From: an uncultured Thermoleophilia bacterium
GTDB lineage: Bacteria; Actinomycetota; Thermoleophilia; UBA2241
Direction of reading: 5' to 3'
Length of the DNA stretch: 26,882 nt
Assembly: GCA_964615105.1 (NCBI GenBank)
Contig: CAZTMO010000001.1
Location: forward strand, 1 to 26,882
Shown: piece by piece, positions 6,998 through 26,334 of the stretch
Position numbering within the stretch: position 1 is the stretch's first letter
Layout of the letters: each line of letters starts with the position of its first letter
The notes under the pieces: model-generated
Databases searched by the model: none
Told to the model about the DNA's origin: nothing
What the model saw: only the letters and a program-made list of their open reading frames with translations
Translations under genes and position numbers: made by a program

Positions 6998-7064
6998 AGC
7001 CAACCCCTTTCAGACCTTCGCTCGTGGGAGACGCGCCGCCCGCGACCCCCCTCCTCTCTCCGGC

Positions 7065-9404: not shown

Positions 9405-9886
9405 CGTGACGTCACCTCCTCGCGAAGGTGGTCTCCCGCGGCCTTGACGGCCTCGATGATCTTCACGTAGCCGGTGCACCGGCAGAGGTTGCCCCGCAGC
9501 CCTTCGAGAATCTGTTCCCGGCTGGGATCGGGATTGCGATCGAGCAAGGCCTTCGCCGACATCACCATGCCGGGGGTACAGAAACCGCACTGGATGGCGC
9601 CGTGCTCGACGAAGGCACGCTGTACAGGGTCGAGCGAGCCCCCGCCGGCCAGACCTTCGATCGTCGTGACCTCGCGACCGTCGGCCTCGTGAGCAAGCAT
9701 GAGGCAGGAGTTGACCGGCTGACCGTCGAGCAGCACCGTGCAGGCTCCACACTCGCCCTGGTTACAGCCGTTCTTGGTACCTGTCAAGCCGATGTCTTCG
9801 CGGATGATCTCGAGGAGGGTGCGATGGGTGTCTACGAACAGGTCGTACTCGTCCCCGTTGACCGTTATGTGCAGCTCTCGCTTCAC
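9401..9886 (-). CDS. 2x[2Fe-2S] small subunit of a XDH-family molybdoenzyme (CoxS-like)
   Basis: [28 protein letters not shown] and GNLCRCTGY. The GTG start overlaps the FAD-subunit stop (GTGA). Confidence 0.96.
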
Positions 9887-10764
9887 CCTCGTCCTCCGTT
9901 CGTGACCCAGCCCTGCGCCGCTGTGAGGACGCGCCGCGACATGACCTCCACCAGCACCCGGCGGTACTCCGCCGAGGCGCGGATATCGTCGATGGGGCGT
10001 GACTCCTCGACCGCTTTGGCGGCCGCCGCCGCGATCACGACCTCGTCCAGCTCTCTACCGATCAGCGACGCCTCGGCGGCGCGCGCCCGCATGGGTGTGG
10101 GGGCGACGGCGCCCAGAGCGAGGCGAGCCTCGCGTACGACGACCGACCCCGGCTCGAAGGCGGCGAACAACGCCACGCCGACCGTACAGCAGTCCATGGC
10201 CGAGCGGAACGTCTTCAGATATGTGGCGAAGCTGTCCTGGGGCACGGCCGGCACGCGGACTGCCTTCAGCAGCTCGCCGCACCGCAGAACGGTCTGCCCG
10301 GGCCCCGTGAAGAAGTCCTCGAGCGGGACGACGCGTTCGTCGCTGCCATCGGTGAGAACGGCCTTGGCATCCAGGGCGATCAGGATCGCCGCCATGTCGG
10401 CTGACGGTGCGGCATTGCAGAGGTTCCCCCCGATGGTCGCCCGGGTGCGCACTTGCACCGAGCCGATCCAGGAGGCGGCCCGTGCGATCGCAGGGAAGCG
10501 CTCCATGACCTCAGGTGAATGCTCGATCACGCCGAGCGGCGTGACCGCTCCGATGGCGACGCCGCCTTGGGCGTCCGCCTCGATGAAGTTGAGGCCGGGC
10601 ACGTCACGAAGGCTCACGACCACGTCGGGACGCAGCCCGGCCGCCCTCACCTGTACGAGGACGTCTGTGCCTCCGGCCAAGGCCAGTGCGGAGCCGTTCG
10701 AGCCGGCCAGCACGTCGCAGGCCTCCTTGAGCGAACTCGGACGCGCGTAGTCGAACGCTCTCAT
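9883..10764 (-). CDS. FAD-binding medium subunit of a XDH-family molybdoenzyme (CoxM-like)
   Basis: Start refined to ATG 10764 (MRAFDYARPSSL). Motifs: LAGGTDVL, IGSVQVRTRATIGGNLCNAAPSAD, ALGAVAPTP and IDDIRASAEYR. Confidence 0.95.
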   Translation of the reverse strand: MRAFDYARPSSLKEACDVLAGSNGSALALAGGTDVLVQVRAAGLRPDVVVSLRDVPGLNFIEADAQGGVAIGAVTPLGVIEHSPEVMERFPAIARAASWIGSVQVRTRATIGGNLCNAAPSADMAAILIALDAKAVLTDGSDERVVPLEDFFTGPGQTVLRCGELLKAVRVPAVPQDSFATYLKTFRSAMDCCTVGVALFAAFEPGSVVVREARLALGAVAPTPMRARAAEASLIGRELDEVVIAAAAAKAVEESRPIDDIRASAEYRRVLVEVMSRRVLTAAQGWVTNGGRG

Positions 10765-10789: not shown

Positions 10790-12016
10790 TCATGCCGACC
10801 GGGTCGCCACGCCGGCGCGCGTGTTCTCGATCGGCGCTTCGACCATCGTGATCGCCTCGCGGGCGCACAGGAAGTAGCAGACGGCGCAGGAGTAGCAGTC
10901 CTTCGGCTTGACGAGGACAGCCTTCTTGTCGCGGATCTCGATGCACTCGCAGTGACCCGGCGCGGCGCAGAGACCACACCCGTTGCACTTCTCGAGGTCG
11001 ATCTCGGGGAGCATCGGGATGTAGTGCACCTCGCCCGGGGTGACGATGTACTTGAGAGCGATTCCGCGCATGTCCGCCAACGTCTCGTAGCCATTCTCGT
11101 CCATGAACTTGCGCATGCCGGGCTCGATCTTGGCGAACGCCTTGTAGCCCTTCAGGTAGAGGAGCGAGCAGTACGTGAGCACGGTGGCGCCGTACATGAT
11201 CATCTCCACGGAGTGGCGCCAGTTCATGAGACCGCCACCGCCGGCCAGCGGCAACGTCGGACAGATCGTGCGCATCTGCGCGATATGGCGGTAGGCGAGC
11301 GGCCGGATCCACGGGCCGCAGAGCCCGGCGAAGGACTGGTTGTCGGTCGACGGGTACATCGGCGTGCCGCCGTTCTTGATGTTGAGCGGCGGCAACGACT
11401 GCGGGCAGTTGATGGCCGACACCGCAGCCGCGCCGTTCTTCTCCACCGAACGCGCCACCATCATGGTGTTGGCCTCTGGGGTCATCTTCGGCATCACGGG
11501 GATCTTCACCGCATCGGCCACGGCCTTGCAGACCTGACCGGCCAGTGCCGGGTCCTTGCCTAGGGTGGCGCCGAGCTCGGGCTCTTCGTCGACACCCATC
11601 TGCTTGGCCATGAGCCCCAGGTTCGGACAGCTCATGTTGAGCTCGAGCATGTCGGCGCCGGCCTCTTCGAGCATGCGCGCCAACTTGGCCCAGCCCTCGA
11701 GGTCCTCACCAGGGCCCATCATGTTGGCGATGATCTTGAGCTCGGTCTGCTCCTTGCACTGCTGGATGAGCTCCTGCGTGTCCTCCACGCGCATACGCTC
11801 GCCCGACGGTGAGTAGAAGGCGCCTTCCTTCTCGATGATGTGATAGGGACGCGCGTACAACGGGACCTTGAGAAAGGTGAGCTTCGTGCTGACGGCCGAA
11901 GCGCCGTTCTCCTCAGCCCACTTGATCTTCTCGACCTTGTTCGTCAACTCGGACGAGGCGATGATGAATGGATTCTTAAGCTTGAGGCCTGCGAAGTCGA
12001 CTGACAGGTCAGCCAT
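10790..12016 (-). CDS. preA: PreA-like FMN TIM-barrel oxidoreductase (dihydroorotate/dihydropyrimidine dehydrogenase family) with C-terminal 2x[4Fe-4S] domain
   Basis: Start ATG 12016 after GAAGGGGGAG. Motifs: LSVDFAGLKLKNPFIIAS, LELNMSCPN (active-site loop Cys), PKMTP, SAINC, GLCGPWIRPLA, LAGGGG, CNGCGLC...HC and CYSCAVCYFLC. The symbol indicates similarity, not proven function. Confidence 0.85.
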   Translation of the reverse strand: MADLSVDFAGLKLKNPFIIASSELTNKVEKIKWAEENGASAVSTKLTFLKVPLYARPYHIIEKEGAFYSPSGERMRVEDTQELIQQCKEQTELKIIANMMGPGEDLEGWAKLARMLEEAGADMLELNMSCPNLGLMAKQMGVDEEPELGATLGKDPALAGQVCKAVADAVKIPVMPKMTPEANTMMVARSVEKNGAAAVSAINCPQSLPPLNIKNGGTPMYPSTDNQSFAGLCGPWIRPLAYRHIAQMRTICPTLPLAGGGGLMNWRHSVEMIMYGATVLTYCSLLYLKGYKAFAKIEPGMRKFMDENGYETLADMRGIALKYIVTPGEVHYIPMLPEIDLEKCNGCGLCAAPGHCECIEIRDKKAVLVKPKDCYSCAVCYFLCAREAITMVEAPIENTRAGVATRSA

Positions 12017-13661
12017 CGAGCTCCCCCTTCTGCACGTCGGTTTCCTCTGCGGTCTCTGCAAACCCGGACACCGCCACGGTCTCGCGGGTCGCCTCAAGGC
12101 GCGCGGCGATCTCCAGGTAGCGGCCCTCGACCGCCGCCTGAGCGTCGTCGCGCGCTTCGTCTGTCCAGTAGCCCAGCTCGTAGCCGAACCACGGCTTTCT
12201 CAGGCTCAGCGGCGGCAGGCCCTCGGCCTCCCAGCGCGCCAGCGCCCGTTCCATGAACTCCTTGCGCGGCAGCGACGTCGGCGGGTAGTCCCACTTGCGC
12301 GTCGCGTCGATGAGGATCGCCGACGTCCCCGAGGGCTGCGGGAAGCGCTGTTCGTCGACGTGCGCCTCTGGCGGCGCCGAGGACGGATCGAGGATGCTGG
12401 CCTTGCCGGTGACGATGTGCGTGTCCAGATGTGGGCGCATCCGGTAAGCCATAGCCCAGTTGACGGCATCGGCGTCATTGGGATCGATGTCCTCGTCGAC
12501 GGCGACGATCATCTTGCCGATCGTCGGGTCGAGCGCGACGGCGGCGTGGAGCGCCTGCCAGGGCTGCGACGGGTGTACCTTCTTGAGCTGGATGACCATC
12601 AACCCGTAGCTGCCGGTCATCTCGTGGAGCTGGACGTCGAGGATCCCCGGGATGTTCGCCGACTTCAACCTGTTGAGGTACACGGCGTCATAGGCGAGCT
12701 TGCGGATGAGGCTGCTCTCCGACGGCGGGAACTGGCTCAGGAAGGCCTGGTAGACCGGCGTCTTGCGGTGCATGATCCCCGTCACGTGGAACACCGGATT
12801 GGCGACGCGCGTGCCCATGTAGCCCGTGTACTCGCCGAAGGGCGCCTCCTGCTCGCGGTACGTCGGGTCGACGTATCCCTCGACGACGATCTCGGCGCTC
12901 GCCGGGACCTCGAGATCGACCGTCTGGCACTTGACCAGCTCGATCGGCTCGCCGGCGATGCCGCCGGCAACGGCGAACTCGTCGACGCCGTACGGGATCT
13001 TGGCGACGCTGCAGAGGCCGACGGCCGGCGTGCAGCCGAGGATGATGGCCGCCTCGAGCACCTTGCCGTTACGGCGCGCGCTCTGCAGGTGCAGGCCGAT
13101 GTGTTGGCTCTGATGAGCCATCATGCCGGCCTTTCCGCCCCCCTTCACCATCACCCGGTACGTGCCCACGTTGCGGTCGCCAGTCTCGGGATCCTTGGTC
13201 ACCCAGAAGGGCGAGGTGAAGTACGGCGCGGGGTCGAAGCCCGGCGTGGAGATGGGATGCGGGAACTCGAGAATGCCGTCGTGCTCAAGCAGCCCGTCGC
13301 CGACGTGGATCTCCTCCATGACGGGACCATCGTCGACGAGCACGGGAGGGATGTAGCCTCGGTGGACCGCCGCCCAGCGATCACTGATCTCGTCGGGGCC
13401 ACAGCCGAGCGCCTTCGCGTATACCGCCCGGTTGGCCCCGAGGACACCGACAGCGACGGGGCCGGGGAACGTGCGTCCGTTGACGTCTCTCACGTCCTCG
13501 AACACGAATGCCGTGCGCTGCTCGGCCGGCAGGCCGCGGAACTGCAGCCTGACCAGCGGCATGAGCTCGGTGTCCTTGCAGATCGGCGTGCGCACCCGCC
13601 GGAGCAGGTCTGCGGCCTCCAACGCCGCGATGTACTCGCGAAAATCCTTGTAATAGCTCAC
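12009..13661 (-). CDS. ubiD: UbiD-family prFMN-dependent (de)carboxylase, about 550 aa
   Basis: Start refined to GTG 13661 (GTGA overlap, MSYYKDFREYIAALE). Motifs: RNVGTYR, EIVVEG, EAPFGEYTGY, IVAVDEDIDP and ILIDATR. The symbol is family-level only. Confidence 0.93.
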   Translation of the reverse strand: MSYYKDFREYIAALEAADLLRRVRTPICKDTELMPLVRLQFRGLPAEQRTAFVFEDVRDVNGRTFPGPVAVGVLGANRAVYAKALGCGPDEISDRWAAVHRGYIPPVLVDDGPVMEEIHVGDGLLEHDGILEFPHPISTPGFDPAPYFTSPFWVTKDPETGDRNVGTYRVMVKGGGKAGMMAHQSQHIGLHLQSARRNGKVLEAAIILGCTPAVGLCSVAKIPYGVDEFAVAGGIAGEPIELVKCQTVDLEVPASAEIVVEGYVDPTYREQEAPFGEYTGYMGTRVANPVFHVTGIMHRKTPVYQAFLSQFPPSESSLIRKLAYDAVYLNRLKSANIPGILDVQLHEMTGSYGLMVIQLKKVHPSQPWQALHAAVALDPTIGKMIVAVDEDIDPNDADAVNWAMAYRMRPHLDTHIVTGKASILDPSSAPPEAHVDEQRFPQPSGTSAILIDATRKWDYPPTSLPRKEFMERALARWEAEGLPPLSLRKPWFGYELGYWTDEARDDAQAAVEGRYLEIAARLEATRETVAVSGFAETAEETDVQKGELDG

Positions 13662-15550
13662 AATCCTGCTCCATCCAGTAGGTTCGCGACGATCGGATCG
13701 CTCGTGACCCATTCGAGTCCGAGCCGCTCCAGGGTCTCGGGTGTTGGCATGCTCGTCACCGGGTCGTATCCGCTCGCGGCGTACAGCTCCCGGCGCATGA
13801 GGTCGAAGTCCACGACCTGCCCGGCGATCGGGCCCTCGGGGACCGCCTCCTCGAGGAGCCTCGCCGGGATCGTGTCGTCCTCGGCGCGCAGGCCTTCACG
13901 GACGTTGATGACGCGCTCCAGGGCGTTGATGCGCTCGCCGGCCAGGTACATGTCGGCCGCCGAGAACTCGTGCCCCGTCGCCGTGCCGATGAGCTCGGCC
14001 AGTGTGCCGTCCTGCATGCCGATGGTCAGGAACGCGCACGTGCCTGCGGAGTCGGCCGCCGCGGCTCGCCGGTTGCGGCTGCCGAGCGCGATCGGCGCCT
14101 TGCCCGAGTCCGCGAAGCGGTCGATGTCCGGGTTCGTCAGTTCGGCGGTGACCGTGTAGCCGCCGGCGTGATGGCAGCCGCCCCGGTTGCCGCACCCGTA
14201 GACGAGCGCCATCCCCTTCGCCCCACGAGGATCGTAACCGCCCACCTCCATGCCTTTGGCGTGCATCGCAAAGGCCTCGGAACCCTGGCCGATGCGTTCG
14301 GCCATCGCTTTGCTACCCAGCGCGATCTCAGCGCCGAAGCCGCGTCTGAAGGCGGCGTCCTTGACCAGCTCGATCATCGCCTCCGCGTTGCCGAAGCGCA
14401 GGTCGATGCCCCCTGTGTCTTCCTTGGTGATCAACCCGCGTTCGAAGCACTCCATGGCGAACGAGATGGTGACGCCGACCGAGATGGTGTCGATGCCGTA
14501 GAGATCGCAGAGCTGGTCGGCCGCGATGACCGCGCCCAGATCGTAGACGCCGCACGAGCTCCCCAGCGAGTAGACGGTCTCGTACTCCGGTCCTTCAGAG
14601 GTCGCCCCCGCGTAGGGACCGTCCCGCACGACCGTGACCTTGCTGCACCGCGAGGGACAAGGATCGCCGCACGGAGCGTCCTTAACGAGGTACTGCTCGC
14701 GCAGCATGTCGCCGAGCAGCCCACGACCCTTGTCGACCGGCGCCGACCGCTGCCAGTTGTCGGCCGGCATGATGCCCGAATTGAGCGTCACGGCGACAGT
14801 GCTGACCGAGCCGTGAAGCTTCAGCGGACCAGAGGTGAAGGGGTGCTCACGAAGCTCCTTGACGATCTTCTTGACCGCCGCTTTGAACCCGTCGGGATCG
14901 CCGACGGGCGCGGCCTCTGCGCCCGCGCGCACGACCATGGCCTTGACGTTCTTTGAGCCCATGACAGCGCCGGCGCCGCCGCGGCCGAGCGCACGACGCT
15001 CGTTGAGCAGGCAGGCGTAAGGAACGAGGTTCTCTCCGCCCGGGCCGATGCAGGTGATCGCGACTTGGCCGCGCGGCAGTTCGTCGCGGATGTACTCCTG
15101 CGCCGAAAGCGTATCGAGGCCCCAGAGGTGGCCGGCCGGATGCAGCTTGGCCTTGCCGCCAGTGATCTCGACGTACACCGGCTCGTCGCTACGCCCGGTG
15201 AGGACGATGACGTCGAAGCCGGAACGCTTGATCACCGGTCCCAGATCGCCCCCGGTGATGCAGAAGAGATAGAGCCCGGTCTGAGGCGACTTCGTCGCCA
15301 GGGCGGCCCGAGCAGAACCCGGGGCCGTCGTTCCGCTCAGGGGTCCGGAGGCGAAGATGAGCGGGTTCTCCGGACTCAGCGCGTCGGTCCCTGCGGGCAG
15401 CATGTCGAACAGGTAGCGGGCGGCAAGGCCGCGGCCGCCGACGAAGCTTCTCGCGGCGGCCGCATCGAGATCCTCGACACGCTGCTCGCCGCTGCCGACG
15501 TCGACGACGAGAACCTTGCCCCAGAATCCGCCCACAGGGAACTGCCCCAT
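13658..15550 (-). CDS. aor: Aldehyde:ferredoxin oxidoreductase (AOR/WOR) family tungstoenzyme catalytic subunit, paralog B
   Basis: ATG 15550 lies 6 nt after AAGGAG (alternative GTG 15556). Motifs: GGRGLAA, KSPQTG, GRGGAGAVMGSKNVKA, EGPEYETV, CDLYGIDTIS, KGMEVGGYDPR, RGGCHH and DSAGTCAF. Confidence 0.95.
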   Translation of the reverse strand: MGQFPVGGFWGKVLVVDVGSGEQRVEDLDAAAARSFVGGRGLAARYLFDMLPAGTDALSPENPLIFASGPLSGTTAPGSARAALATKSPQTGLYLFCITGGDLGPVIKRSGFDVIVLTGRSDEPVYVEITGGKAKLHPAGHLWGLDTLSAQEYIRDELPRGQVAITCIGPGGENLVPYACLLNERRALGRGGAGAVMGSKNVKAMVVRAGAEAAPVGDPDGFKAAVKKIVKELREHPFTSGPLKLHGSVSTVAVTLNSGIMPADNWQRSAPVDKGRGLLGDMLREQYLVKDAPCGDPCPSRCSKVTVVRDGPYAGATSEGPEYETVYSLGSSCGVYDLGAVIAADQLCDLYGIDTISVGVTISFAMECFERGLITKEDTGGIDLRFGNAEAMIELVKDAAFRRGFGAEIALGSKAMAERIGQGSEAFAMHAKGMEVGGYDPRGAKGMALVYGCGNRGGCHHAGGYTVTAELTNPDIDRFADSGKAPIALGSRNRRAAAADSAGTCAFLTIGMQDGTLAELIGTATGHEFSAADMYLAGERINALERVINVREGLRAEDDTIPARLLEEAVPEGPIAGQVVDFDLMRRELYAASGYDPVTSMPTPETLERLGLEWVTSDPIVANLLDGAGL

Positions 15551-15552
15551 GC

Positions 15553-16701
15553 TCACTCCTTTGCCAGCGCCTTGCGATACAGGCGCTCGAGGTCGGCAGG
15601 CGACGCGTTACGCACGTTCAGCCTGTAGTTGACGACTTTCGTGCACTGCTCGACCAGTACGGGGATCTCTTCGTCGGTGACGACAGCCGGGTCCAGGGTG
15701 GTCGGGAAGCCCACGGCCTCCATGAGACTCCAGAGGCGATAGAGCAGCTCCTCGGCGAGCTCGGCATCGTCGCCCTGCTCGCCGAGCAACCTCGCGATCG
15801 GGGCGATCTTGGCGCTGGCCACCGGCAGGTTGAACTCCATGGCGTACGGCAGCATGATGCCGGTGGCCAGCCCATGAGACATGTGGAGCCGTCCCAGTGG
15901 CTGCGACAGAACGTGGGCGAGACCCGGCAGCGACGTGCCCGTCGCCATGTTCGCGATCGTGCTGGCCTCGAGCATGCGCTGCTTGGCGCCGAGATCGCCG
16001 GTCAACGCCGCTCTGGGCAGACTGTCGAAGATCGTCGCCGCGGACGTCGCGGCCAAGCCGTCCGAGAAGTCGGTCGCGCCGACCGACCAGATCGCGTCCA
16101 GCGCATGCGCCAGGGCGTCCATCCCGGCAACCAGCGCCGGCCACGCCGGAAGGCTCTCCATGAGTCCGCCGTCCAGGATCGCGACGGTGGGGTACGTGCG
16201 TTCGTCGAGGATCGACATCTTGAAGCCGCGCGCCTCGTCGGTGAGGATCGTCACCTTCGAGACCTCGGTCCCCGAGCCCGCGGTAGTGGGGACGGCGATC
16301 ACCGGGAACGGCGCCTTGGCGGCCTTGTTGAAGCCCTCGTAGTCGGTGAGCACGCCGCCGTTGGCGGCCACGAGGGCGATTCCCTTACCGGCGCACATCG
16401 GGCTTCCGCCCCCCAGAGCTATGACCAGGTCGCAACCCTCCGCCTTGAAGACCTCGACGCCGGCAGCGACGGTGCGCACGCCGGGGTCTTCCTCGACTTG
16501 GTCAAACAGGACATAGGGCAATTCCGCCTCGTCCAGGAGGCCGGTGACGCGGCTCGTCACGCCCGCCGCCGACAGACCGGCGTCAGTACAGATGAACGCC
16601 TTGCTGCCCCCGGAGGCGCGCACCTGCGCCGCGACGGCCCCGATGCTGCCCAGGCCGTGCACGATCCGAGTAGGCATGAAGAAGAGCTTCGGCTGCGACA
16701 T
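15553..16701 (-). CDS. Iron-containing (group III) alcohol dehydrogenase
   Basis: The start is probably ATG 16701 after GGGGGA. Motifs: FFMPTRIVHG, LGGGSPM, VPTTAGSGTEVS, GMDALAHALD and GLAHVLSQ...SHG. Confidence 0.93.
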   Translation of the reverse strand: MSQPKLFFMPTRIVHGLGSIGAVAAQVRASGGSKAFICTDAGLSAAGVTSRVTGLLDEAELPYVLFDQVEEDPGVRTVAAGVEVFKAEGCDLVIALGGGSPMCAGKGIALVAANGGVLTDYEGFNKAAKAPFPVIAVPTTAGSGTEVSKVTILTDEARGFKMSILDERTYPTVAILDGGLMESLPAWPALVAGMDALAHALDAIWSVGATDFSDGLAATSAATIFDSLPRAALTGDLGAKQRMLEASTIANMATGTSLPGLAHVLSQPLGRLHMSHGLATGIMLPYAMEFNLPVASAKIAPIARLLGEQGDDAELAEELLYRLWSLMEAVGFPTTLDPAVVTDEEIPVLVEQCTKVVNYRLNVRNASPADLERLYRKALAKE

Positions 16702-16731
16702 CGATCCCCCAGTCATCAGACTCTTGTCTTA

Positions 16732-16759
16732 AGCATAGTCTATCGTCCAGTATTATGAA
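16732..16759 (-). promoter_or_regulatory. Candidate internal sigma70 promoter (TTCATA-N16-TATGCT) for the adh-to-cupin genes
   Basis: An AT-rich patch overlaps the gntR stop, with -35-like TTCATA at 16754-16759 and -10 TATGCT at 16732-16737. The predicted start is near 16725, about 25 nt upstream of the adh ATG. Confidence 0.5.
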
Positions 16760-17715
16760 TCGGACAAGTCGACCTCGAGGACATCGTCTGCTCCGGCCTG
16801 CCCGCGGACGTCCTCAGGCTCCAAGCTGACGAGCGCAGTACCGTCACGAACGGCTCCGCGCGCGGCCGCTTCACCAGTCAGCGCGTCCCAGAACGTCCCA
16901 CCGTTCTCGTGGCTCCTCGTGAGAAATCCGCGATGCTTGTACCGGTCGGAGCGGTAGTAGACCTCCGCCAGATCGACCACGCGGGCGTCCGACGTGTAGA
17001 CGGTGAGCGTCAGTTTGAGAAGCGAGGTCAGCAGATCCACTTCGAGCAACCTCGCCTGCTCGTCGTCGGCGGCCACCGCCTCGAACATCTGCGAAGCCCA
17101 ATCGACCTTGAAGCCGGTCCGCTTCTCGATCAGCACGATGAGGGGTTCCTTCTCAAGTTCGCTCAGCGAGAGACACGCGCCCACCTCGTACGGGACGTAG
17201 TTGGTCAAGACGGCCAGCGGCCGGTCGCCCACGAGCCGCACACGTTGCACGTAGAACAGGTCCGCGTCTTCGCCGATCGCGAACGTCTCAGCGAGGTCCG
17301 GCGTTGGTTTCACGAGCCTGAACTCGACCACGCGGACGCGCGTGTCGGGCCCGATGTGGATGAGATCCTCCAAGCTCCCGCTGATGTGCGGCGTCGCGTC
17401 GTCGGCAAGCTCCTCCGAGACGAACGAGCCCTTCCCCTTGACTCGCCGGATCAGGCCCTGGTCGTCGAGCATCTGGAGAGCCTGGCGCACCACCACACGG
17501 CTCACGCCGAAACGCTTCGTGAGCTCCGCCTCGGACGGCAACTGGCGCCCAGGCGCGAGCTTGCCCGCGATGATTTGCTCTTTGAGGTTCCGCATGACCT
17601 GGTAGTAGAGGGGGATCCCATTGCGACGACTTGGCCTCCCCCTGCGGGTCGTCGACAGCCGGCCGTCGCCGGCGGCAGCTCCCGGCCCGCCCTTGGAGCC
17701 CCACTGTCCACTCAT
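16753..17715 (-). CDS. GntR-family transcriptional regulator, HutC subfamily (wHTH plus UTRA)
   Basis: ATG 17715 lies 7 nt after AGGAG. The HTH reads IPLYYQV...LPSEAELTKRFGVSRVVVRQALQMLDDQGLIRRVKGKGSFV. The UTRA region includes VQRVRLVGDRPLAVLTNYVP and YYRSDRY. Confidence 0.95.
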   Translation of the reverse strand: MSGQWGSKGGPGAAAGDGRLSTTRRGRPSRRNGIPLYYQVMRNLKEQIIAGKLAPGRQLPSEAELTKRFGVSRVVVRQALQMLDDQGLIRRVKGKGSFVSEELADDATPHISGSLEDLIHIGPDTRVRVVEFRLVKPTPDLAETFAIGEDADLFYVQRVRLVGDRPLAVLTNYVPYEVGACLSLSELEKEPLIVLIEKRTGFKVDWASQMFEAVAADDEQARLLEVDLLTSLLKLTLTVYTSDARVVDLAEVYYRSDRYKHRGFLTRSHENGGTFWDALTGEAAARGAVRDGTALVSLEPEDVRGQAGADDVLEVDLSDS

Positions 17716-18033: not shown

Positions 18034-19839
18034 TCAGACACCAAGCCGTTCGCGCGCGGCCGCGGTCGGCACTCCGTCTGCGTCCCAGCCGCGAAGGCTG
18101 TAGTACTCGTCCAGGACATCGGCGACGTCGAGCTTGTGTCCCTCGGGGTCTGACGGCGCCGCCTCTTCCGCGAACCGTCGCGGCAAAGCGTCGTCCGCCC
18201 GTGTGAACCCCTCCTCGACGTTGAAGAGACGCTCCAGCGTATTGACGCGCGAACCTATCGTGTACACGTCGTCCGTCGTGAGGTTCATTCCCGTGGGCAG
18301 GTTCGCACAGCGCGCGTAGAGCTCGACGCTGATGCCGAGGTCGACCGTGAACATGCACATGATCAGCGAGTCGATCATCACCGTGCTGTCCTGCATCCGC
18401 TTCACCAGCTCGGCTTTGCCCTCAAGAGAGTAGCGGTCGTAGTCGCCCAATACCCCGAGGAACTCCGCCGCCACGGTGAACGCCTTGTTGTGGTCGGCGC
18501 CGCGTCCGGTCGTGGCATAAGAGATGCCCATGCCGGTGAAGCCGCGCGGCGCGTAGGCGGCGATCTCGAGGCCCTTCACCTGCATGGCGTACTCCTCGCC
18601 CCTGCCCAGCTTGCGCGCCGCGCCGCGCGACCCGAGGGCGAGCACGTCGCCGAAGCCCTCACGTGCGCCGATGCTGAGAAGCGCGGGCCGCAGGACGTCG
18701 GCGTTGCCGAAGGTGAAGTCCAGCCCGTCGGTCTCGTCCTTCGTCAGCAGGCCCTTCTCGGTCATCTCCATGGCCCACGCGATGGTCGAGCCCGCCGTCA
18801 TCGTGTCGATGCCCATCTGATCGCAGAGGTAGTTGGCCTCCATGATCGCCGTGAGGTCGAGGATGCCGCAGAGGGGGCCGAGCGCCCAACACGACTCGTG
18901 GTCGAGGCGCTCGGATCGATACGAGCGCCCGTCGCGCTCGAACTCCAGGACCGCGCCGCAGATCACGTTGCAGCTGCTACAGGCTTCGCGACCGGTGATG
19001 TAGGAGTCGATCACCTCGTGATGGATCGTGCTGACATCCGGGACTCTGTCGTCCTGATGGTTCCGATAGGGCAGCCCGGTCGCCTCGTTCACGTTCGGCA
19101 GCATGCCGTTGGTCCCGGGCCAGCGAAACGCGGGCCGCACAGGGTTCTCCATGATGATGTCGTGAAGCGCCTTGCACCCGGCGATGTAGTCCGTGGTGGA
19201 CGCTGCGACGCTGACGCCGCCTGAGCCGCGCACGGCGACGGCCTTCAGTCGCTTGCTGCCGAAGACGGTCCCCGATCCGCCGCGACCGGCGTTGTGCTGC
19301 ATGTGCATGAACGTGCCGTAGCGCACGCCGTTCTCGCCGCCCGGGCCGATCGTCCCGATCTGGAAGTCGTGGCCGAGCTCCTCCTCGAGGAGAGCTTGCG
19401 CTTCGAGACACTCCTTGCCCCAGAGCCGCGTCGCGTCGACAAGTCGCGCCTTCTCGTCGTCCACGACCAGCGCCACCGGCTTCTCCGAAACGCCCGTGAT
19501 GATGATGCCGTCCCACCCGGCGTACTTGAGCGCGGGCCCGAAGTGGCCGCCCATGTAACTGGCCGAGATGGTCCCGGTCAGCGGGCTCTTCACGCCGATG
19601 GCGATGCGACTGGCGGTCGGGATCATCGTGCCCGTCGCCGGCCCGGTCGCGAACACGATCACGTTCTCCGGGCCGAGTGGGTCGATGCCCCTCGGCAGCA
19701 TGTCGTAGAGCAGCTTCGCCACAAAGCCGCGCCCGCCGATGTACTTCTCGGCGAGCTCGTCAGTGAGCGGCAGCGAGCCGAACTCCCCGGTCCCGAGGTC
19801 GACGGTCAGGAACTTGCCGGTGTAGCCGCCGTACTTCAT
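18034..19839 (-). CDS. aor: Aldehyde:ferredoxin oxidoreductase (AOR/WOR) family tungstoenzyme catalytic subunit, paralog A
   Basis: ATG 19839 follows GGAGG (ATGA overlap). Motifs: YIGGRGF, KSPLTG, GGHFGPALKYAGWDG, GRGGSGTVFGSKRLKA, CSSCNVIC, CDQMGIDTM, RGADH and DSLIMCMF. Confidence 0.95.
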   Translation of the reverse strand: MKYGGYTGKFLTVDLGTGEFGSLPLTDELAEKYIGGRGFVAKLLYDMLPRGIDPLGPENVIVFATGPATGTMIPTASRIAIGVKSPLTGTISASYMGGHFGPALKYAGWDGIIITGVSEKPVALVVDDEKARLVDATRLWGKECLEAQALLEEELGHDFQIGTIGPGGENGVRYGTFMHMQHNAGRGGSGTVFGSKRLKAVAVRGSGGVSVAASTTDYIAGCKALHDIIMENPVRPAFRWPGTNGMLPNVNEATGLPYRNHQDDRVPDVSTIHHEVIDSYITGREACSSCNVICGAVLEFERDGRSYRSERLDHESCWALGPLCGILDLTAIMEANYLCDQMGIDTMTAGSTIAWAMEMTEKGLLTKDETDGLDFTFGNADVLRPALLSIGAREGFGDVLALGSRGAARKLGRGEEYAMQVKGLEIAAYAPRGFTGMGISYATTGRGADHNKAFTVAAEFLGVLGDYDRYSLEGKAELVKRMQDSTVMIDSLIMCMFTVDLGISVELYARCANLPTGMNLTTDDVYTIGSRVNTLERLFNVEEGFTRADDALPRRFAEEAAPSDPEGHKLDVADVLDEYYSLRGWDADGVPTAAARERLGV

Positions 19840-20246
19840 GAGGCACCTCCCCAGGTGAGCGCCCCTTCGGGACACCACTTGACACAGAGCGGATCACCGT
19901 CGCACAGGTCGCAGATCATGATGCGCCTGTCGACGGCGTCCTGGTGGACGTTCGGGCAGGCGTCGAGACAGGCGCCGCAGTCGGTGCACTCCTCCTGGAT
20001 GAAGCGCACGACGCCGGCCTCCTCGTCCCAGACGAGCGCTTCCTGCGGGCACGCGTCGACGCAGACTCGCTCGTGCGTCATGTCACAGACGGAGCACTGC
20101 ATGGGCCCAAGGTGGATACCCGGCTGTCGCGAGACCTGGATGCACGCCCCGGATGGCTGAACGCGGCCAAGCTTGTTCAGCGAGCACACGCCCGAGCACA
20201 TATCGCAGGCGATGCACTTCTCGACATGGAACTCGATGTAGTTCAT
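19836..20246 (-). CDS. 4x[4Fe-4S] electron-transfer subunit (DmsB/AorA-like)
   Basis: Start ATG 20246 (MNYIEFHVEK). 136 aa with CIACDMCSGVC, CSVC...CVDACP, CTDCGACLDACP and CDLC...CVKWCP. Translationally coupled to AOR paralog A. Confidence 0.93.
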   Translation of the reverse strand: MNYIEFHVEKCIACDMCSGVCSLNKLGRVQPSGACIQVSRQPGIHLGPMQCSVCDMTHERVCVDACPQEALVWDEEAGVVRFIQEECTDCGACLDACPNVHQDAVDRRIMICDLCDGDPLCVKWCPEGALTWGGAS

Positions 20247-20262: not shown

Positions 20263-21432
20263 TCAGACTTGGTCGAGCTCCGCGAGAAACGCATCGACTC
20301 CGGCGCCCACGTCGGCGCGGGAGCCCATCTCGTTGAGGCAGTCCCCCAGCGCCGTGATGGCGAGAAGGCCGTACGCCGGGCTGCAGGTGCGTCCCATGTG
20401 GCCGAGTCGGACGAGCTTTCCGTAGATGGGGGTGTTGAAGAGGCTCCCCGAGATGAGCACGCCGAACTTCGCGACCATCCGGTCACGCAGCTTCTCATCA
20501 TCGACGCCGTCCGGAACGGCGACGGCGGTGGCCACATTGCACGCGTGCGCCTCGGTGTCGGGCCAGAGCTCGAGCCCCATCGCCTTGACGCCGGCCCGCG
20601 TGGCACGCGCCACCTCGGCGTATCGCCGGAAGTGCTCCTCGTGGCCCACCTCGAGGTACTCGCTCACCGCGGCGTTGAGGGCCGGCACCTCTGAAGTCGA
20701 GGTCGTGTACGGCCAGATCTCCTTCTCGAGCCAGAGCTCTTTCCAGTCAAGGATGCTGAAGTACGAGTAGCGGTTCGGCCGTTTGACAGTGCGGAAGAGC
20801 TCCCACGCGGCGTCGGAGATCGCCATGGCGCTGAGGCCGGGCGGCGCCCCAAGGACCTTCTGTGAGCCGACGGAGACGATGTCGATGCCCCACGCATCGA
20901 CCTCTACGGGGACGCTGCCGGCGCAGCTCACGGAGTCGACGAACACGAGCTTGCCATACTGCTTGCCCAGCTTGGCCAGGGTCTCGAGGTCAGATTGGGT
21001 GCCGCAGGGCGTCTCACAATGCACGAGCCAGAGGATCTTGGCCTCGGGATGCGCCTTGAGGACCGCCTCGAGCTGTTCCGGCTCGACGACGGTGTTCCAG
21101 TCGGTCTCGACCGGGATCGCCTTGGCGCCATACTTCTCGAGGAAGTAGCGGTTGCCCTCGCCGTAGTGCCCGCTCTCGATGTTGATCACCACGTCGCCCT
21201 CGTCGAGGCCGCAGAAGGAGATGGCCTCGAGTCCGAGGAGGGCCTCGCCCTGCATCATCACGATGTCGTTCTTCGTCTTAAGGAAGGCCTTGAACTTCTC
21301 CTGCGTGTCACGGAAGAGCTCCATGTAAGGCTGCGAGTAGTCGAAGAGCAGTTGCCCGCCGAGGGCGGAGCGGACCCTGTCCGAGAGCTCGACCGGCCCC
21401 GCAGTCATGATGAAGTCGATAGATCGGGTCAT
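20263..21432 (-). CDS. ppaT: Pyridoxamine:pyruvate aminotransferase-like protein (fold type I, class V)
   Basis: ATG 21432 lies 8 nt after AAGGAAGG. Motifs: TAGPV, LFDY, QGEALLGLEA, SGHYG, LKAHPE, HCETPCG, VDSVS, SQKVLGAPPGL, SILDW and GKLVRLGHMG. These match the M. loti PPAT sequence as I recall it better than AGXT/PucG (GSG-type motif). Class V membership is near-certain and the specific function is inferred. Confidence 0.8.
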   Translation of the reverse strand: MTRSIDFIMTAGPVELSDRVRSALGGQLLFDYSQPYMELFRDTQEKFKAFLKTKNDIVMMQGEALLGLEAISFCGLDEGDVVINIESGHYGEGNRYFLEKYGAKAIPVETDWNTVVEPEQLEAVLKAHPEAKILWLVHCETPCGTQSDLETLAKLGKQYGKLVFVDSVSCAGSVPVEVDAWGIDIVSVGSQKVLGAPPGLSAMAISDAAWELFRTVKRPNRYSYFSILDWKELWLEKEIWPYTTSTSEVPALNAAVSEYLEVGHEEHFRRYAEVARATRAGVKAMGLELWPDTEAHACNVATAVAVPDGVDDEKLRDRMVAKFGVLISGSLFNTPIYGKLVRLGHMGRTCSPAYGLLAITALGDCLNEMGSRADVGAGVDAFLAELDQV

Positions 21433-21467
21433 ACCGAACACCTTCCTTCGTTAAGTGGGTGACGGGC

Positions 21468-22403
21468 TCACCGCTGACCGCGCACGAACGGGATGGCGAG
21501 CGCCGAGGGCAGCATGCTGTGTCTCGCGAAGAGCGCCAAAGCCGCCATCACGGCGACGAACGGCAGCATCTGGACCAGGTCGGTGGAGATGTTGATGCCC
21601 ACCAACTGCAGGGCGGTGGCGATGGAAAGCGCGACACCGAACAGCAGCGATCCGATGAGCACCCATACCGGGCGTCCACGGCCGAGCATGGCGATCACGA
21701 TCGCGATGAAGCCGTAGCCGCCCGTCATGAACGGTACGAATATCCCGGCCGTCACGATCGCCATGTAACCGCCACCCAGGCCGGCCAAGGCTCCGGTGGA
21801 CAGCGCCGCGACGGTGCGGATCTTCAAGACGTCCACGCCGGCGTTGTCGAGCGCGACGGGCTTCCAGCCGGCGGCCCGGATGTTGAGGCCGAGGTTGGTC
21901 TTGTACAACATCCACCCGATCACGAAGATCAGGGCGAAGCCGATGTACACGATCAGCGGCTGGCTGAAGAGGCTTGGTCCCAACACCGGGATCCGCTCCA
22001 GCCCGGGAATCCCCAGGGTCGGCACGTTGTCGAGGCGAGGGTAGCTCTCGCCGAACTGCACCTGGTGAAGCAAGCTCGTGAGCCCTTCCATGGCGAGCAG
22101 GATGGCGATACCGACGACGATCTGGTCACGGCCCATGCGCACGCAGAAGACGACCATGAGCAGCGAGACCGCCATGCCGGCGAGGACCGCCGCCGCGAAG
22201 CCCAACCATGACGAGCCCGTCCAGTTGGCGGCCACGAACCCGAAGTAGGCGCCGAGGAGCATCATGCCCTCAAGGCCGATGTTGAGCAGTCCGGCTTGTT
22301 CCGAGATCGTCTCGCCGAGGGCGGCAAGGAGCAGCGGCATGCCGGCGAGGACCGCGCCCGTGATGACGGCGGCCACGAACTCAGTGGTCCAGAGCTCACC
22401 CAT
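21468..22403 (-). CDS. CUT2/nucleoside-type ABC transporter permease 2
   Basis: ATG 22403. Motifs: PLLLAALGETISEQAGLLNIGLEGMMLLGA, NIRAAG...AGVDV and GYGFIAIVIAMLGR. Multiple hydrophobic segments. Confidence 0.93.
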   Translation of the reverse strand: MGELWTTEFVAAVITGAVLAGMPLLLAALGETISEQAGLLNIGLEGMMLLGAYFGFVAANWTGSSWLGFAAAVLAGMAVSLLMVVFCVRMGRDQIVVGIAILLAMEGLTSLLHQVQFGESYPRLDNVPTLGIPGLERIPVLGPSLFSQPLIVYIGFALIFVIGWMLYKTNLGLNIRAAGWKPVALDNAGVDVLKIRTVAALSTGALAGLGGGYMAIVTAGIFVPFMTGGYGFIAIVIAMLGRGRPVWVLIGSLLFGVALSIATALQLVGINISTDLVQMLPFVAVMAALALFARHSMLPSALAIPFVRGQR

Positions 22404-23559: not shown

Positions 23560-25237
23560 CCTGGCCGCCTCCAATCATCAGGGCGCCGATCTCCTGCTCC
23601 GCGCCGGATTTGTTCTGCACGATCCCCATGAGACGGCCGCGCGACAGGACGGCGATCCGATCGCAGAGCACGAGCAGCTCTTCGAGATCGGTGGAGATCA
23701 CCAGGGCTCCGGCGTCGCCTGTGTCGGCAAGCTGTCGGATCCGGGAGCGCACGGCGTTGGTCGTCTTCACGTCCAGACCGTACGTGGGTTTGTTGAAGAC
23801 CACGACTTTGGGATCGAACGAAAGCTCGCGAGCCAGCACCACCTTCTGCACGTTGCCGCCCGAGAGGGACCCGGCGTGCGTGTGGATGGTCGGAGTCATG
23901 ATGTTGTACTCACGCACGAGCTCGTCGGCGTTGGCGTCGATGGCTTCGAACCGCGTCCGTCCCCCGACCCAGAACGGGGCCATGCCGATGCGCTTGGTCA
24001 CCATGTTCACGGCGACACTGAGCGGCCCGACGATGCCTTCGTTGAGGCGGTCGTCGGTGACGTAGCGCAGGCCGTGCCGTTGACGAGCCTTGATACTGAG
24101 CCTGCGCATGGATCTGCCGTCCAGCCGGATGTCGCCGCCGTCAAGCCTTCGCTGCCCGGCGATGGCCTCGGCCAAGGGCCGCTGACCGTTACCGTCGACG
24201 CCGGCGACGCCGACGACCTCGCCAGCGTGCACCGTGAGGTCCAGCGCCTCGTCGATGCCGATCTCGCCACGGCCTCCTGTCACCATGACGCCCTCCAGCT
24301 CGAGCAGAGGCTGGCCGCCGCTCTCGGTTCGCCCGGCGGCGCCGCCCAATTCGGAGAGGTCGTGCAACTCGGCGACATTGGCGAGGCTCTCGGCCTCGCC
24401 GGGGAACATGAGGTTCACGACCATGGCGTGGAGATCCTCGTGCGACGAGCGCCGCATGGTGTCGCCGTCGATGGTCCCTTCCAGACGACCTTGACGCAGT
24501 ACCGATACACAATCGCCGATGGCGAACGCCTCGCGGAGCTTGTGGGTGATGAAAATGACTGCGAGGCCTTCCTTCTTCAACTGCACGATCACGCGTTCGA
24601 GGTCCTCGATGCCCTTGGGGGTCAGCATGGACGTGGGCTCGTCCAGGATCAGCACCTTCGATCCCTGCCACAGCGCCTTGAGGATCTCGACCTGCTGCTG
24701 CTGCCCCAGAGAAAGCTCCTGCACGACGGTGTCTGAGTCGACCTCCACCCCGAGGGTCGCCGACAACCGCGCCAAACCCTCCTCGGCCTTCTTCACACTC
24801 AGTCGCACCCCCTCGCCTTGCCCGAGCATGAGGTTCTCGAGCACGGTGAAGGTGGGGATCAAGCTGCTGTGCTGGTGGACCATCCCGATGCCGAGCTCGA
24901 TCGAGTCGCGCGGGCAGCTGATGCAGACCTCCTCGCCGCACACGCGAATGCTGCCTTCGTCGGGCTGGTAGATGCCGGCCAACACGTTCATCAACGTCGA
25001 CTTGCCGGCGCCGTTCTCTCCCAGCAGGCAATGGACTTCGCCCTGCCGAACCAGCAGGTTGACGCAGTCGTTGGCGCGCACCCCGGGAAAGATCTTGGTG
25101 ATGCCGCAGAACTGGATCGCGACGATCCTGTCGTCGCCGTTCCCACCCGGAGCTGCCTCGACGGGGCGGGCGGGCGCGGTCCCGAGACCGCGCCCGCCCG
25201 CCCCGTCGCTCTCGCGAGAGACGGGGGCCATCGTCAC
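23552..25237 (-). CDS. CUT2-type ABC transporter ATP-binding protein (two fused NBDs)
   Basis: Walker A GENGAGKST, GMVHQH, LSLGQQQ and ILDEPT. The second, degenerate NBD has LSGGNVQK and FNKPTYGLD. GTGA overlap with the bmp stop. Confidence 0.95.
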   Translation of the reverse strand: MTMAPVSRESDGAGGRGLGTAPARPVEAAPGGNGDDRIVAIQFCGITKIFPGVRANDCVNLLVRQGEVHCLLGENGAGKSTLMNVLAGIYQPDEGSIRVCGEEVCISCPRDSIELGIGMVHQHSSLIPTFTVLENLMLGQGEGVRLSVKKAEEGLARLSATLGVEVDSDTVVQELSLGQQQQVEILKALWQGSKVLILDEPTSMLTPKGIEDLERVIVQLKKEGLAVIFITHKLREAFAIGDCVSVLRQGRLEGTIDGDTMRRSSHEDLHAMVVNLMFPGEAESLANVAELHDLSELGGAAGRTESGGQPLLELEGVMVTGGRGEIGIDEALDLTVHAGEVVGVAGVDGNGQRPLAEAIAGQRRLDGGDIRLDGRSMRRLSIKARQRHGLRYVTDDRLNEGIVGPLSVAVNMVTKRIGMAPFWVGGRTRFEAIDANADELVREYNIMTPTIHTHAGSLSGGNVQKVVLARELSFDPKVVVFNKPTYGLDVKTTNAVRSRIRQLADTGDAGALVISTDLEELLVLCDRIAVLSRGRLMGIVQNKSGAEQEIGALMIGGGQGE

Positions 25238-26334
25238 TGCCCTGAAGCGATGAGGTCCTTGACTTGCTTACCCTTCGTCAGCTCGGGCACCTCGACGCTG
25301 CCGTCCAGGATCCCGGCCTTCGCGTTCTCGCAGGCCGTCCAGACGTCGTCGGGGATGTACTCCGTGTGCAGCAGCCCCATGCCGTTATCGAGGTCGAGGT
25401 AGAAGCTCGCCTCGCCCATGGTCCCGGCCTCGTAGTCCTGAAGGGCTTTGGTCATGAGCGGCGCCCAGTCCCACAGCACCGACGAAAGCAAGACGCCCTT
25501 CTTGTCGGTCGGCGACTTGTCGCCGATCACGTCGATGAACCAGACCTTGTCGGCGCCCTTCGGCGGGGTCGCGGTCTCGACCGCCTGCATCATTCCGAAC
25601 GAAGCACCATCGCCCATGCCGAAGATGATGTCGGCGCCACCGGAGATCGCGCTCGCGGTGACGCGCTTGCCGCCCGCGGCGTCGGCATAGGCAGCCTGGC
25701 CGATCTGCACATAGAGGATCTTCGTGTCGGGAGCGACCGAACGCACGCCGGCCACGAAGCCGCCCGCCTGCTTGGACCAGTTGAGGTCTTCTGCCGACAC
25801 GACGATCGCGACCGTGCCCGACTGCGTCATCTTGCCCGCGAGAACGCCGGCGAGGTAGCCGCCGTGCTCTCCTCTGGTCTCCATGGCCTGCACGAGCTGC
25901 GGGACGTTGACTTCCTCGTTGCCCGGGTCGCTCGCCGTCACAGGAATGTCGAGCGTCTTGGCCATCTTAGGGCCGACGGTGTTGTAGCCGCTCGCCCACG
26001 GGAAGATGACCTCGGCGCCGGCGGAGGCGCCCTGCTCCATGATCGGCGTGTTGTCGCCGTAGCCCGCCCCGTCCTGAATGATCAGCTCGGCGCCGATCGC
26101 CTCGGCAGCCGCCTTGGCGCCTTCCACACCCTGCTGGTTCCAGCCGTAGTCGTTACCCTTCTCAGGGGTGATCACGGCGACTTTGGTAAGCTCGACGCCG
26201 GCGGCCGGCGACTCAGCGGCACCACCCGTATCGTCACTGCGGCCGCCGCAGCCGGCGACCAGCGCGATCATGACCGCGAGCACCATCAGGGCGACCAGAA
26301 GTCCGCTCAGCCGAAAGAACTTGCTGCTCTTCAT
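25234..26334 (-). CDS. BMP-family (PnrA/Med-like) ABC substrate-binding lipoprotein
   Basis: Signal peptide with lipobox LVAGC, NDYGWNQQG, GYLAGVLAG, GGFVAGV, GADIIFG and WFIDVIGD. It is the first gene of the cluster. Confidence 0.92.
   Translation of the reverse strand: MKSSKFFRLSGLLVALMVLAVMIALVAGCGGRSDDTGGAAESPAAGVELTKVAVITPEKGNDYGWNQQGVEGAKAAAEAIGAELIIQDGAGYGDNTPIMEQGASAGAEVIFPWASGYNTVGPKMAKTLDIPVTASDPGNEEVNVPQLVQAMETRGEHGGYLAGVLAGKMTQSGTVAIVVSAEDLNWSKQAGGFVAGVRSVAPDTKILYVQIGQAAYADAAGGKRVTASAISGGADIIFGMGDGASFGMMQAVETATPPKGADKVWFIDVIGDKSPTDKKGVLLSSVLWDWAPLMTKALQDYEAGTMGEASFYLDLDNGMGLLHTEYIPDDVWTACENAKAGILDGSVEVPELTKGKQVKDLIASGQ

Follow-up and report, generated by a model that had tools for sequence, protein, structure and literature searches.

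We describe an aminotransferase encoded on the minus strand at positions 20263..21432 of a 26,882-nucleotide stretch of DNA (the window, in what follows) from an uncultured Thermoleophilia bacterium (contig CAZTMO010000001.1 of assembly GCA_964615105.1). Comparisons of its sequence, predicted fold and gene neighbourhood suggest that this protein is a relative of the pyridoxamine:pyruvate aminotransferase (PPAT) of Mesorhizobium loti and probably a cofactor-independent pyridoxamine:2-oxo-acid aminotransferase, a reading to which we assign a probability of roughly 0.65. Central to this reading are a glutamate, Glu63, which occupies the phosphate-binding loop as a glutamate does in PPAT, and a set of neighbouring genes that point toward vitamin B6.

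PPAT (EC 2.6.1.30; M. loti mlr6806; PDB 2Z9U-2Z9X) interconverts pyridoxamine and pyruvate with pyridoxal and L-alanine, with two arginines, Arg336 and Arg345, binding the alpha-carboxylate of pyruvate or alanine, and with Thr146 located on O3'. To our knowledge, it is the sole characterised aminotransferase for which the 'cofactor' is the substrate, and studies of it have been confined to the rhizobial and Pseudomonas type; its Glu68 reportedly excludes phosphate. Published work establishes that PPAT acts without pyridoxal 5'-phosphate (PLP), that Lys197 forms a Schiff base with pyridoxal and that Asp171 is bound to N1 (PMC9309667), and the corresponding PDB entries are described as holding no cofactor, pyridoxamine, or pyridoxal (PMC6698932).

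Alignment and fold

When all PDB sequences were searched with phmmer, the top match of the window aminotransferase was M. loti PPAT (2z9u; E = 1e-80, 274 bits), followed by PucG at 160 bits. The two proteins are 37% identical over 379 residues with a single 2-residue gap (BLASTP), and no gap interrupts their alignment between residues 9 and 330. Glu63 (GAG, codon 21244-21246, within QGEALLGLEA) falls on the Glu of PPAT 'HGEPVLGLEA' in HMMER, BLASTP and two MAFFT alignments, and its pairing with PPAT Glu68 is thus unambiguous. The initial annotation of this DNA, made from the sequence alone, had proposed that Glu63, Thr141 (21010-21012), Asp166 (20935-20937) and Lys192 (20857-20859) correspond to PPAT Glu68, Thr146, Asp171 and Lys197 at a constant offset of 5, and had given the same codon for Glu63. 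Residues, codon and offset are all borne out by the alignments (the PDB chain of PPAT lacks Met1, such that an offset of 4 in PDB numbering equals 5 in gene numbering), though the constancy of the offset merely reflects gap-free homology and is not information specific to PPAT. Also upheld are the pairing of Arg342 (20407-20409), the carboxylate-binding arginine, with PPAT Arg345, and the replacement of the PPAT Arg336 equivalent. The residue at the latter position is Leu331 (20440-20442), located beside the sole indel of the pairwise alignment, in which the query carries the 2 extra residues, and the query loop at this site (ISGSLFNTPIYG) is devoid of Arg. Consequently, only the Arg345 half of the two-arginine carboxylate site of PPAT has a counterpart in the query.

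These residue numbers count from ATG 21432 on the minus strand, from which the reading frame runs to a TGA stop codon at 20263-20265 and encodes 389 amino acids (the gene coordinates include the stop). A Shine-Dalgarno sequence, GAAGGAAGG (21441..21449, minus strand), ends 8 nt upstream of this ATG, which is favoured as the start because the Shine-Dalgarno sequence overlaps the alternative GTG at 21441. Given this placement, and given that most close homologues are also 389 amino acids long, the start appears sound.

Analysis of the predicted structure yields a consistent picture. The AlphaFold model, built on 38 homologues, has a pLDDT of 94.7, and Foldseek returned 2z9u as its top match (TM 0.96, rmsd 1.4 A) with PucG next (TM 0.92). 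In this model Glu63 falls after strand 56-61 and at the N-terminal end of helix 64-75, where phosphate is classically bound. The protein, a class-V, fold-type-I aminotransferase, matches Pfam PF00266 (Aminotran_5; E = 3.8e-20) with the catalytic Lys and the C-terminal Arg present, and its best curated family is NF046070, pyridoxamine--pyruvate transaminase, at 344.6 bits, the next family scoring 159.9. The Schiff-base Lys, the ring-nitrogen Asp and the O3' Thr of the PPAT fold are all in place, a set of residues that is necessary for, and not specific to, a PPAT.

The phosphate pocket and its distribution in the family

Which of these residues discriminate a PPAT-like enzyme from its ordinary relatives was assessed in an alignment of the query, 120 database homologues, 150 representatives of 50%-identity clusters and reference sequences. 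Thr141, Asp166 (ligand of the pyridine N1), Lys192 (the Schiff-base lysine) and Arg342 are invariant or nearly so in Glu-loop and ordinary AGXT-like members alike, the last three being invariant throughout the family. A joint signature of the four residues aligned at the constant offset was for this reason rejected, three of them being family invariants, and because Thr, Asp, Lys and Arg are common to the whole AGXT-like family, only sites within the phosphate pocket discriminate.

At those sites the separation is pronounced, the counts being drawn from sequences that are not phylogenetically independent. Site 63 is Glu in the 62 Glu-loop sequences and Ser or Thr in most of the 96 others; site 64 is Ala in 47 of the 62 and Gly in 88 of the 96; and site 65 is Leu, Val, Ile or Met in 57 of the 62, as against Thr, Ser, Arg or His in 93 of the 96. 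A fourth site, occupied in the query by Trp240 (20713-20715), is hydrophobic (Phe, Trp, Leu, Ile and the like) in 61 of the 62 Glu-loop sequences, Phe being the residue in PPAT, and polar in 83 of the 96 others, typically Thr, Tyr or His. We take position 240 to correspond to Tyr260 of human AGT, a phosphate ligand contributed by the partner subunit, the phosphate site of the human enzyme presumably consisting of Gly82/His83 and Tyr260/Thr263. A Fisher test of Glu63 against site 240 gave p = 1e-29, a value that ignores shared ancestry and is descriptive only.

The query displays the full Glu-loop pattern, namely G-E-A-L (Gly62-Glu63-Ala64-Leu65, codons 21238..21249 on the minus strand, at the N-terminus of helix 64-75) together with Trp240, as opposed to the G-[ST]-G-[TSRH] loop and polar residue 240 of ordinary enzymes. 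Gly62, Glu63 and Ala64 are, moreover, invariant across the 38 homologues used for the model, down to 41% identity. The query thus carries the loop Glu of PPAT and lacks both the Gly-Ser/Thr-Gly-Thr/Ser/His loop and the polar partner-subunit ligand of AGXT, PucG and SgaA; that AGXT- and PucG-type enzymes have a Gly/Ser loop where Glu63 stands, as first noted, is confirmed by the PDB matches and the alignments. Judged from these comparisons, Glu63 is part of a wider remodelling of the phosphate pocket, broader than a single Glu.

A neighbour-joining tree of 158 sequences (200 bootstraps), a check that the initial annotation had called for, groups the query with M. loti PPAT: a 49-leaf clade composed entirely of Glu-loop sequences holds the query lineage together with the PPATs of M. 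loti and Rhizobium daejeonense (72% bootstrap), and the clade of the query itself has a bootstrap of 100%. The Glu-loop signature marks a large and mostly uncharacterised clade, to which about 60 of the best 150 representatives of 50%-identity clusters belong. The initial annotation had also expected automated pipelines to label the gene an alanine-glyoxylate aminotransferase. This holds for NCBI, in which close homologues are named 'alanine--glyoxylate aminotransferase family protein', but not for JGI/IMG, in which many of them already bear the name 'pyridoxamine--pyruvate transaminase'; the PPAT-like label itself is not new. Where the two names compete, the combination of G-E-A-hydrophobic with Phe or Trp at position 240 could serve as an annotation rule separating PPAT-like from AGXT-like proteins.

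Gene neighbourhood, proposed pathway and alternative readings

Like authentic PPAT genes, the aminotransferase gene is associated with putative genes for B6 uptake or catabolism, and the pointers to the vitamin are of several kinds. Firstly, the window encodes a substrate-binding protein (SBP), a BMP-family lipoprotein with lipobox LVAGC (25234..26334, minus strand), that matches NF047927, 'putative B6 ABC transporter SBP', along its entire length with 371.6 bits, slightly short of the 400-bit cut-off; PGAP would probably name it only generically, as BMP-family. The orthologue of this SBP found beside the aminotransferase of a Gaiellaceae genome scores 413.5 bits on the same model, above the cut-off. 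Secondly, in one of the related clusters, that of a Deltaproteobacteria-type metagenome-assembled genome (MAG; locus L086), the gene set is preceded by an energy-coupling factor (ECF) transporter with a PF07155 S-component; PdxU belongs to this family, as does HmpT, which takes pyridoxamine as its substrate (PMC9997740). The same cluster encodes a 3HCDH protein with FHMPC dehydrogenase of the M. loti B6 pathway as its top PDB match (4om8, 252 bits; next 216) and with NF042925 (FHMPC_DH) as its top NCBIfam match (325 bits, under the cut-off of 500). Additionally, on a plasmid of R. daejeonense a gene that PGAP names PPAT lies by a GntR regulator, a BMP ABC transporter, a lactonase-family protein, short-chain dehydrogenases/reductases, a GMC oxidoreductase, amidases and an annotated 2,5-dihydroxypyridine dioxygenase NicX, so that an aminotransferase, a BMP transporter and a NicX-type protein are found together both in authentic aerobic PPAT clusters and in the window. 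These findings agree with the early suggestion that the aminotransferase is the key to the substrate of the cluster, and they provide independent genomic support for the 'putative B6' family of BMP-type ABC transporters.

The cluster comprises about 17 genes (window positions 2482-26334), which lie on the minus strand unless otherwise noted. Upstream of the aminotransferase, the SBP gene is followed by genes for an ABC transporter ATPase (23552-25237) and two ABC permeases (22396-23574 and 21468-22442). Downstream, the ATG of a 2x[4Fe-4S] ferredoxin (19836..20246), preceded by GGGAGAG, lies 16 nt past the aminotransferase stop, and the ferredoxin gene ends in an ATGA overlap with the start of AOR1 (18034..19839), a tungsten-type aldehyde:ferredoxin oxidoreductase (AOR) with Pyrococcus furiosus AOR as its best solved relative (1aor, 421 bits). 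There follow a GntR/UTRA-family regulator (16753..17715), an iron-containing alcohol dehydrogenase (Fe-ADH; 15553..16716) and a second AOR, AOR2 (13658..15556), about 36% identical to AOR1. A UbiD-family (prenylated-FMN) decarboxylase (12009..13712) has as its best solved relative 6h6x/6h6v, which we take to be the furandicarboxylate decarboxylase HmfF, acting on a heteroaromatic dicarboxylate. Beyond it lie a PreA/dihydroorotate-dehydrogenase-like flavoprotein with a C-terminal 2x[4Fe-4S] motif (10790..12016) and the FAD (9883-10764), [2Fe-2S] (9401-9886) and Mo (7065-9404) subunits of the xanthine-dehydrogenase (XDH) family, which together constitute a molybdenum hydroxylase (7065..10764).

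The cluster continues with a NicX-like protein of M29 fold (5996-7003), a cupin (5603-5995) and, nearer the window edge, a UbiX-like flavoprotein (PF02441; 2482..3159) that is the likely supplier of prenyl-FMN to UbiD. The NicX-like protein is 25% identical to annotated NicX and 67% and 53% identical to its copies in L086 and in a Gaiellaceae locus (L083), respectively, and a phmmer search gave it no PDB match. It keeps the H-L-D motif and has Glu in place of the His of NicX 'AHVGWG', a residue that we assume to be one of the iron-binding ligands of NicX. The protein may be a dioxygenase or a hydrolase, may or may not need O2, and the 'anaerobic' character of the route is thus a hypothesis. 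An M20 (ArgE/DapE-like) deacylase on the plus strand (3868..5253) is of uncertain cluster membership, and a DXP synthase (DXS) gene (504-2390) flanks the cluster. A 110-amino-acid open reading frame (ORF) downstream of the cupin gene (5266-5598) has a sub-threshold match to a ubiquitin-fold (ThiS/MoaD-like) family, and small proteins of this kind occur with the AOR genes of locus L092 (below). No Pfam family was matched by two further ORFs (3104-3952 and, on the plus strand, 2467-3318), and scanning the window for Rfam families and tRNAs gave no hits.

From the sequence of the aminotransferase and from these genes we infer its cofactor independence, the identity of its substrate and all steps downstream of it, as follows. 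A B6 vitamer would be imported by the BMP-type ABC transporter. In the site that holds PLP in ordinary relatives, the aminotransferase would bind pyridoxamine or pyridoxal in unphosphorylated form and as a substrate, Glu63-Ala64-Leu65 and Trp240 filling the 5'-phosphate pocket, Lys192 forming a Schiff base with pyridoxal, Asp166 pairing with the ring nitrogen (N1), Thr141 contacting O3' and Arg342 holding the carboxylate of the 2-oxo acid, such that pyridoxamine and a 2-oxo acid are converted to pyridoxal and an amino acid. Pyruvate would be the most likely acceptor, its identity being uncertain because the second PPAT arginine (Arg336) is absent. AOR1 and the ferredoxin could then oxidise pyridoxal to 4-pyridoxate, Fe-ADH and AOR2 could oxidise the 5'-hydroxymethyl group, UbiD and UbiX could decarboxylate, and the Mo hydroxylase, the PreA-like reductase and the NicX-like and cupin proteins, possibly with the M20 protein, may hydroxylate, reduce and open the pyridine ring. 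The presence of one aminotransferase, one alcohol dehydrogenase and two AORs would be fitted most parsimoniously to the two different one-carbon side chains of pyridoxamine.

On this basis we propose, tentatively and with distinctly less confidence than the assignment of the enzyme itself, that the aminotransferase may be the entry enzyme of an undescribed, largely oxygen-independent B6 catabolic pathway conserved in uncultured Thermoleophilia and in Deltaproteobacteria-type MAGs. If so, each oxygenase or NAD-dehydrogenase step of the two aerobic routes known so far would have a substitute in the route encoded by the cluster, pyridoxal would become a candidate new substrate for an AOR and pyridine dicarboxylates for UbiD, and a query branch that lacks the second arginine and is tied to a ferredoxin and a tungsten-type AOR would offer a hypothesis for B6 degradation where oxygen is scarce. 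Among open-access papers, we found nothing relevant on anaerobic B6 catabolism, on AOR or UbiD enzymes with pyridoxal or 4-pyridoxate, or on a BMP-family B6 transporter, and a 2026 preprint on B6 catabolites is unrelated to a ferredoxin/AOR/UbiD cluster.

The cluster recurs in other genomes (loci L001-L015, L086, L091 and L092), the loci nearest to the window being those of Thermoleophilia MAGs. The order SBP, ABC ATPase, permease, permease, aminotransferase, ferredoxin, AOR1, GntR, ADH, AOR2, UbiD, PreA is preserved in about 12 MAG loci of Thermoleophilia or Actinomycetota, and the linkage persists, with gene substitutions, at 42-48% aminotransferase identity. Thus, the Deltaproteobacteria-type MAGs (L086 and L091) display the series aminotransferase, ferredoxin, AOR, PreA, UbiD, 3HCDH, NicX, cupin, XDH and have a different transporter; a further locus (L092) holds UbiD, AORs, a NicX-cupin pair and the aminotransferase-ferredoxin-AOR set. 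Gaiellaceae loci (L083 and L087) combine the aminotransferase with GntR, a BMP ABC transporter, XDH subunits, NicX, a cupin and a class-II-aldolase-type protein, and luciferase-like monooxygenases in the cluster of the former suggest an aerobic variant. The NicX-like gene is in every case accompanied by that of a small cupin, the pair being common to L083, L086, L091 and L092.

Several of these loci have features of their own. In L083 a class-II-aldolase/adducin-type protein (461-1177, minus strand) stands in place of UbiD; as evidence for an HMPDC decarboxylase (2z7b, from M. loti) it was weak, this being its fourth PDB match at 85 bits, and it was not used. In L092 (1-13021), three AOR genes are accompanied by several ferredoxins, an HdrD-like CCG/Fe-S protein and two small proteins of the ThiS/MoaD-like kind; no XDH genes are in view, and the last AOR gene appears to be fused to, or miscalled with, a permease domain. 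One MAG (contig CAVRZA010000001.1, 144785-165954, L090/L002; L007) has two aminotransferase paralogues, of which one, with 82% identity, sits in a full cluster and the other, with 86% identity, lies alone by a 481-amino-acid class-V aminotransferase, a GntR/FCD regulator and an Opp-type ABC transporter. A Solirubrobacterales MAG (L017, 8815-11161) carries tandem Glu-loop aminotransferases (QGECM and QGEAV) by a BMP ABC transporter in divergent orientation. The neighbourhood of a homologue in Peptoclostridium acidaminophilum (loop AGEGI) was uninformative, and among the loci compared no cultured anaerobe with the cluster was found.

A number of observations weigh against assignment of the window enzyme to the PPAT type. 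Its score of 344.6 bits on NF046070 lies under the equivalog cut-off of 600 (homologues from related clusters reach 419.8 and 458 bits), and although the protein resembles and clusters with PPAT, it stands outside strict equivalog membership. Its lysine motif is Ser-Gln-Lys (Q191-K192), as in ordinary AGXT, rather than the Pro-Asn-Lys of PPAT. Every displayed member of the query clade has Leu or Ile at the Arg336 position, the Arg being found, within the representative set, in a narrow clade around M. loti PPAT and in P0152, P0157 and P0191. The single 65-leaf clade within which 62 of 62 Glu-loop sequences fall has a weak bootstrap of 37%, and we know of no characterised member of, or biochemistry on, the query branch. 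Glu-loop homologues also occur in unrelated contexts: Anaerolineae-type loci (L081, L082 and L085) have them, at 42-48% identity, directly upstream of contractile-injection-system genes; another (L093) has MTHFR on one side and, on the other, an SNF transporter plus the glycine cleavage system; and the lone paralogue described above stands outside any catabolic cluster. The Glu loop is consequently not proven to mean 'B6 catabolism' everywhere. The injection-system genes are of the extracellular type and include sheath, tube, PAAR and Pvc16 components.

Some of these points would equally fit a PPAT-type, cofactor-less mechanism put to another use, whether on a modified vitamer (5'-modified, glycosylated, ginkgotoxin-like or an intermediate), with another 2-oxo acid, or in B6 salvage. 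Loss of Arg336 with a 2-residue insertion in that loop, the exchange of Phe for Trp at position 240, an identity to PPAT of 37% only and the homologues outside catabolic clusters are all compatible with such a role. Salvage or a different vitamer may apply to parts of the clade. For the window enzyme we nonetheless regard such a role as unlikely, given that the translational link to the ferredoxin and AOR and the recurrence of the cluster across phyla imply aldehyde oxidation, and hence catabolism over salvage, and that no sequence feature picks out a different vitamer.

Still less probable, in our estimation, is an ordinary PLP-dependent amino-acid:glyoxylate or amino-acid:pyruvate aminotransferase of the AGXT/PucG type that handles nitrogen in a purine-, pyrimidine- or nicotinate-type catabolic cluster. 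PucG acts in purine catabolism and is the second-best PDB match; the NCBI name of the close homologues, the retained Ser-Gln-Lys motif and the failure to reach the PPAT cut-off point in the same direction; and the BMP transporter, the XDH-type hydroxylase and the PreA-like reductase, whose families are typical of purine and pyrimidine catabolism too and to that extent also count against a B6 reading, would together with the M20 hydrolase suit such a pathway. This explanation is, however, difficult to reconcile with the three phosphate-contacting loop positions and residue 240, all of which follow the PPAT pattern and are invariant in the clade, with an SBP that fits the B6-specific rather than the nucleoside model, and with the FHMPC-dehydrogenase homologue and PdxU/HmpT-family transporter component of related clusters. 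Furthermore, purine or pyrimidine catabolism makes no use of AORs, an ADH or UbiD/UbiX, which would suit the loss of the two one-carbon side chains of B6.

Finally, it is very improbable that the cluster degrades a non-B6 aminomethyl heteroaromatic (for example, the thiamine-derived 4-amino-5-aminomethyl-2-methylpyrimidine) transaminated with loosely bound pyridoxal or another cofactor arrangement, for although an aminotransferase, an AOR and UbiD could strip any aminomethyl side chain, the PreA-like reductase and M20 (ArgE/YlmB-like) hydrolase suit pyrimidine chemistry and a DXS gene lies nearby, a cofactor-less aminotransferase needs a 3-hydroxy-4-aminomethylpyridine electron sink in its substrate, the SBP and the FHMPC-dehydrogenase-like, NicX-like and PdxU/HmpT-family evidence points to a pyridine and specifically to B6, and two AORs with an aminotransferase and an ADH match the two different side chains of pyridoxamine. 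A PPAT-like enzyme acting on pyridoxamine is the reading we favour over all three.

Comparison with known systems

Compared with AGXT, SgaA, PucG and HKT enzymes (3ISL, 1H0C, 2CH1, 2DR1), the window aminotransferase shares the fold (TM 0.84-0.93), the catalytic Lys, the Asp, the Thr/Ser, the C-terminal Arg and the SQK motif, and differs in having G-E-A-L with Trp240 in place of G-[ST]-G-[TSRH] with a polar residue 240; identity to these enzymes is 25-30%. With PPAT it has in common the fold (TM 0.96), the glutamate of the phosphate loop, a hydrophobic aromatic residue at position 240, the Lys, Asp and Thr of the pyridoxal site and the Arg345 counterpart, and authentic PPAT genes likewise adjoin a GntR gene, a BMP-type ABC transporter and NicX. 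The two are distinguished by their motifs, QGEAL, SQK and Trp240 in the query as opposed to HGEPV, PNK and Phe in PPAT; by their neighbours, a ferredoxin and a tungsten-type AOR in the window as opposed to the NAD-dependent pyridoxal 4-dehydrogenase and lactonase of PPAT; and by the host, which is here an uncultured Thermoleophilia-type actinobacterium.

Nicotinate degradation provides a second point of reference. The nicotinate fermentation of Eubacterium barkeri and the aerobic nic cluster (NicAB hydroxylase, NicX dioxygenase) feature a Mo-containing XDH-family hydroxylase, a ring reductase and a NicX-family protein; counterparts of all three occur in the one window cluster, in which, unlike in those systems, no nicotinate-specific genes were recognised.

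The aerobic B6 pathway I of M. loti and Pseudomonas MA-1 proceeds through PPAT, pyridoxal 4-dehydrogenase, 4-pyridoxolactonase, 4-pyridoxic acid dehydrogenase, FHMPC dehydrogenase, HMPDC decarboxylase, MHPC oxygenase and AAMS hydrolase. The route proposed here would share with it the predicted entry reaction and a logic in which side chains become carboxylates, decarboxylation follows and the ring is opened, and related clusters contain a homologue of its FHMPC dehydrogenase. It would differ, if our proposal is correct, in its use of ferredoxin-linked AORs instead of NAD- or flavin-dependent dehydrogenases for aldehyde oxidation, of UbiD/UbiX instead of a class-II-aldolase-type decarboxylase, and of a Mo hydroxylase together with PreA-like, NicX-like and cupin proteins instead of the flavin monooxygenase MHPCO.

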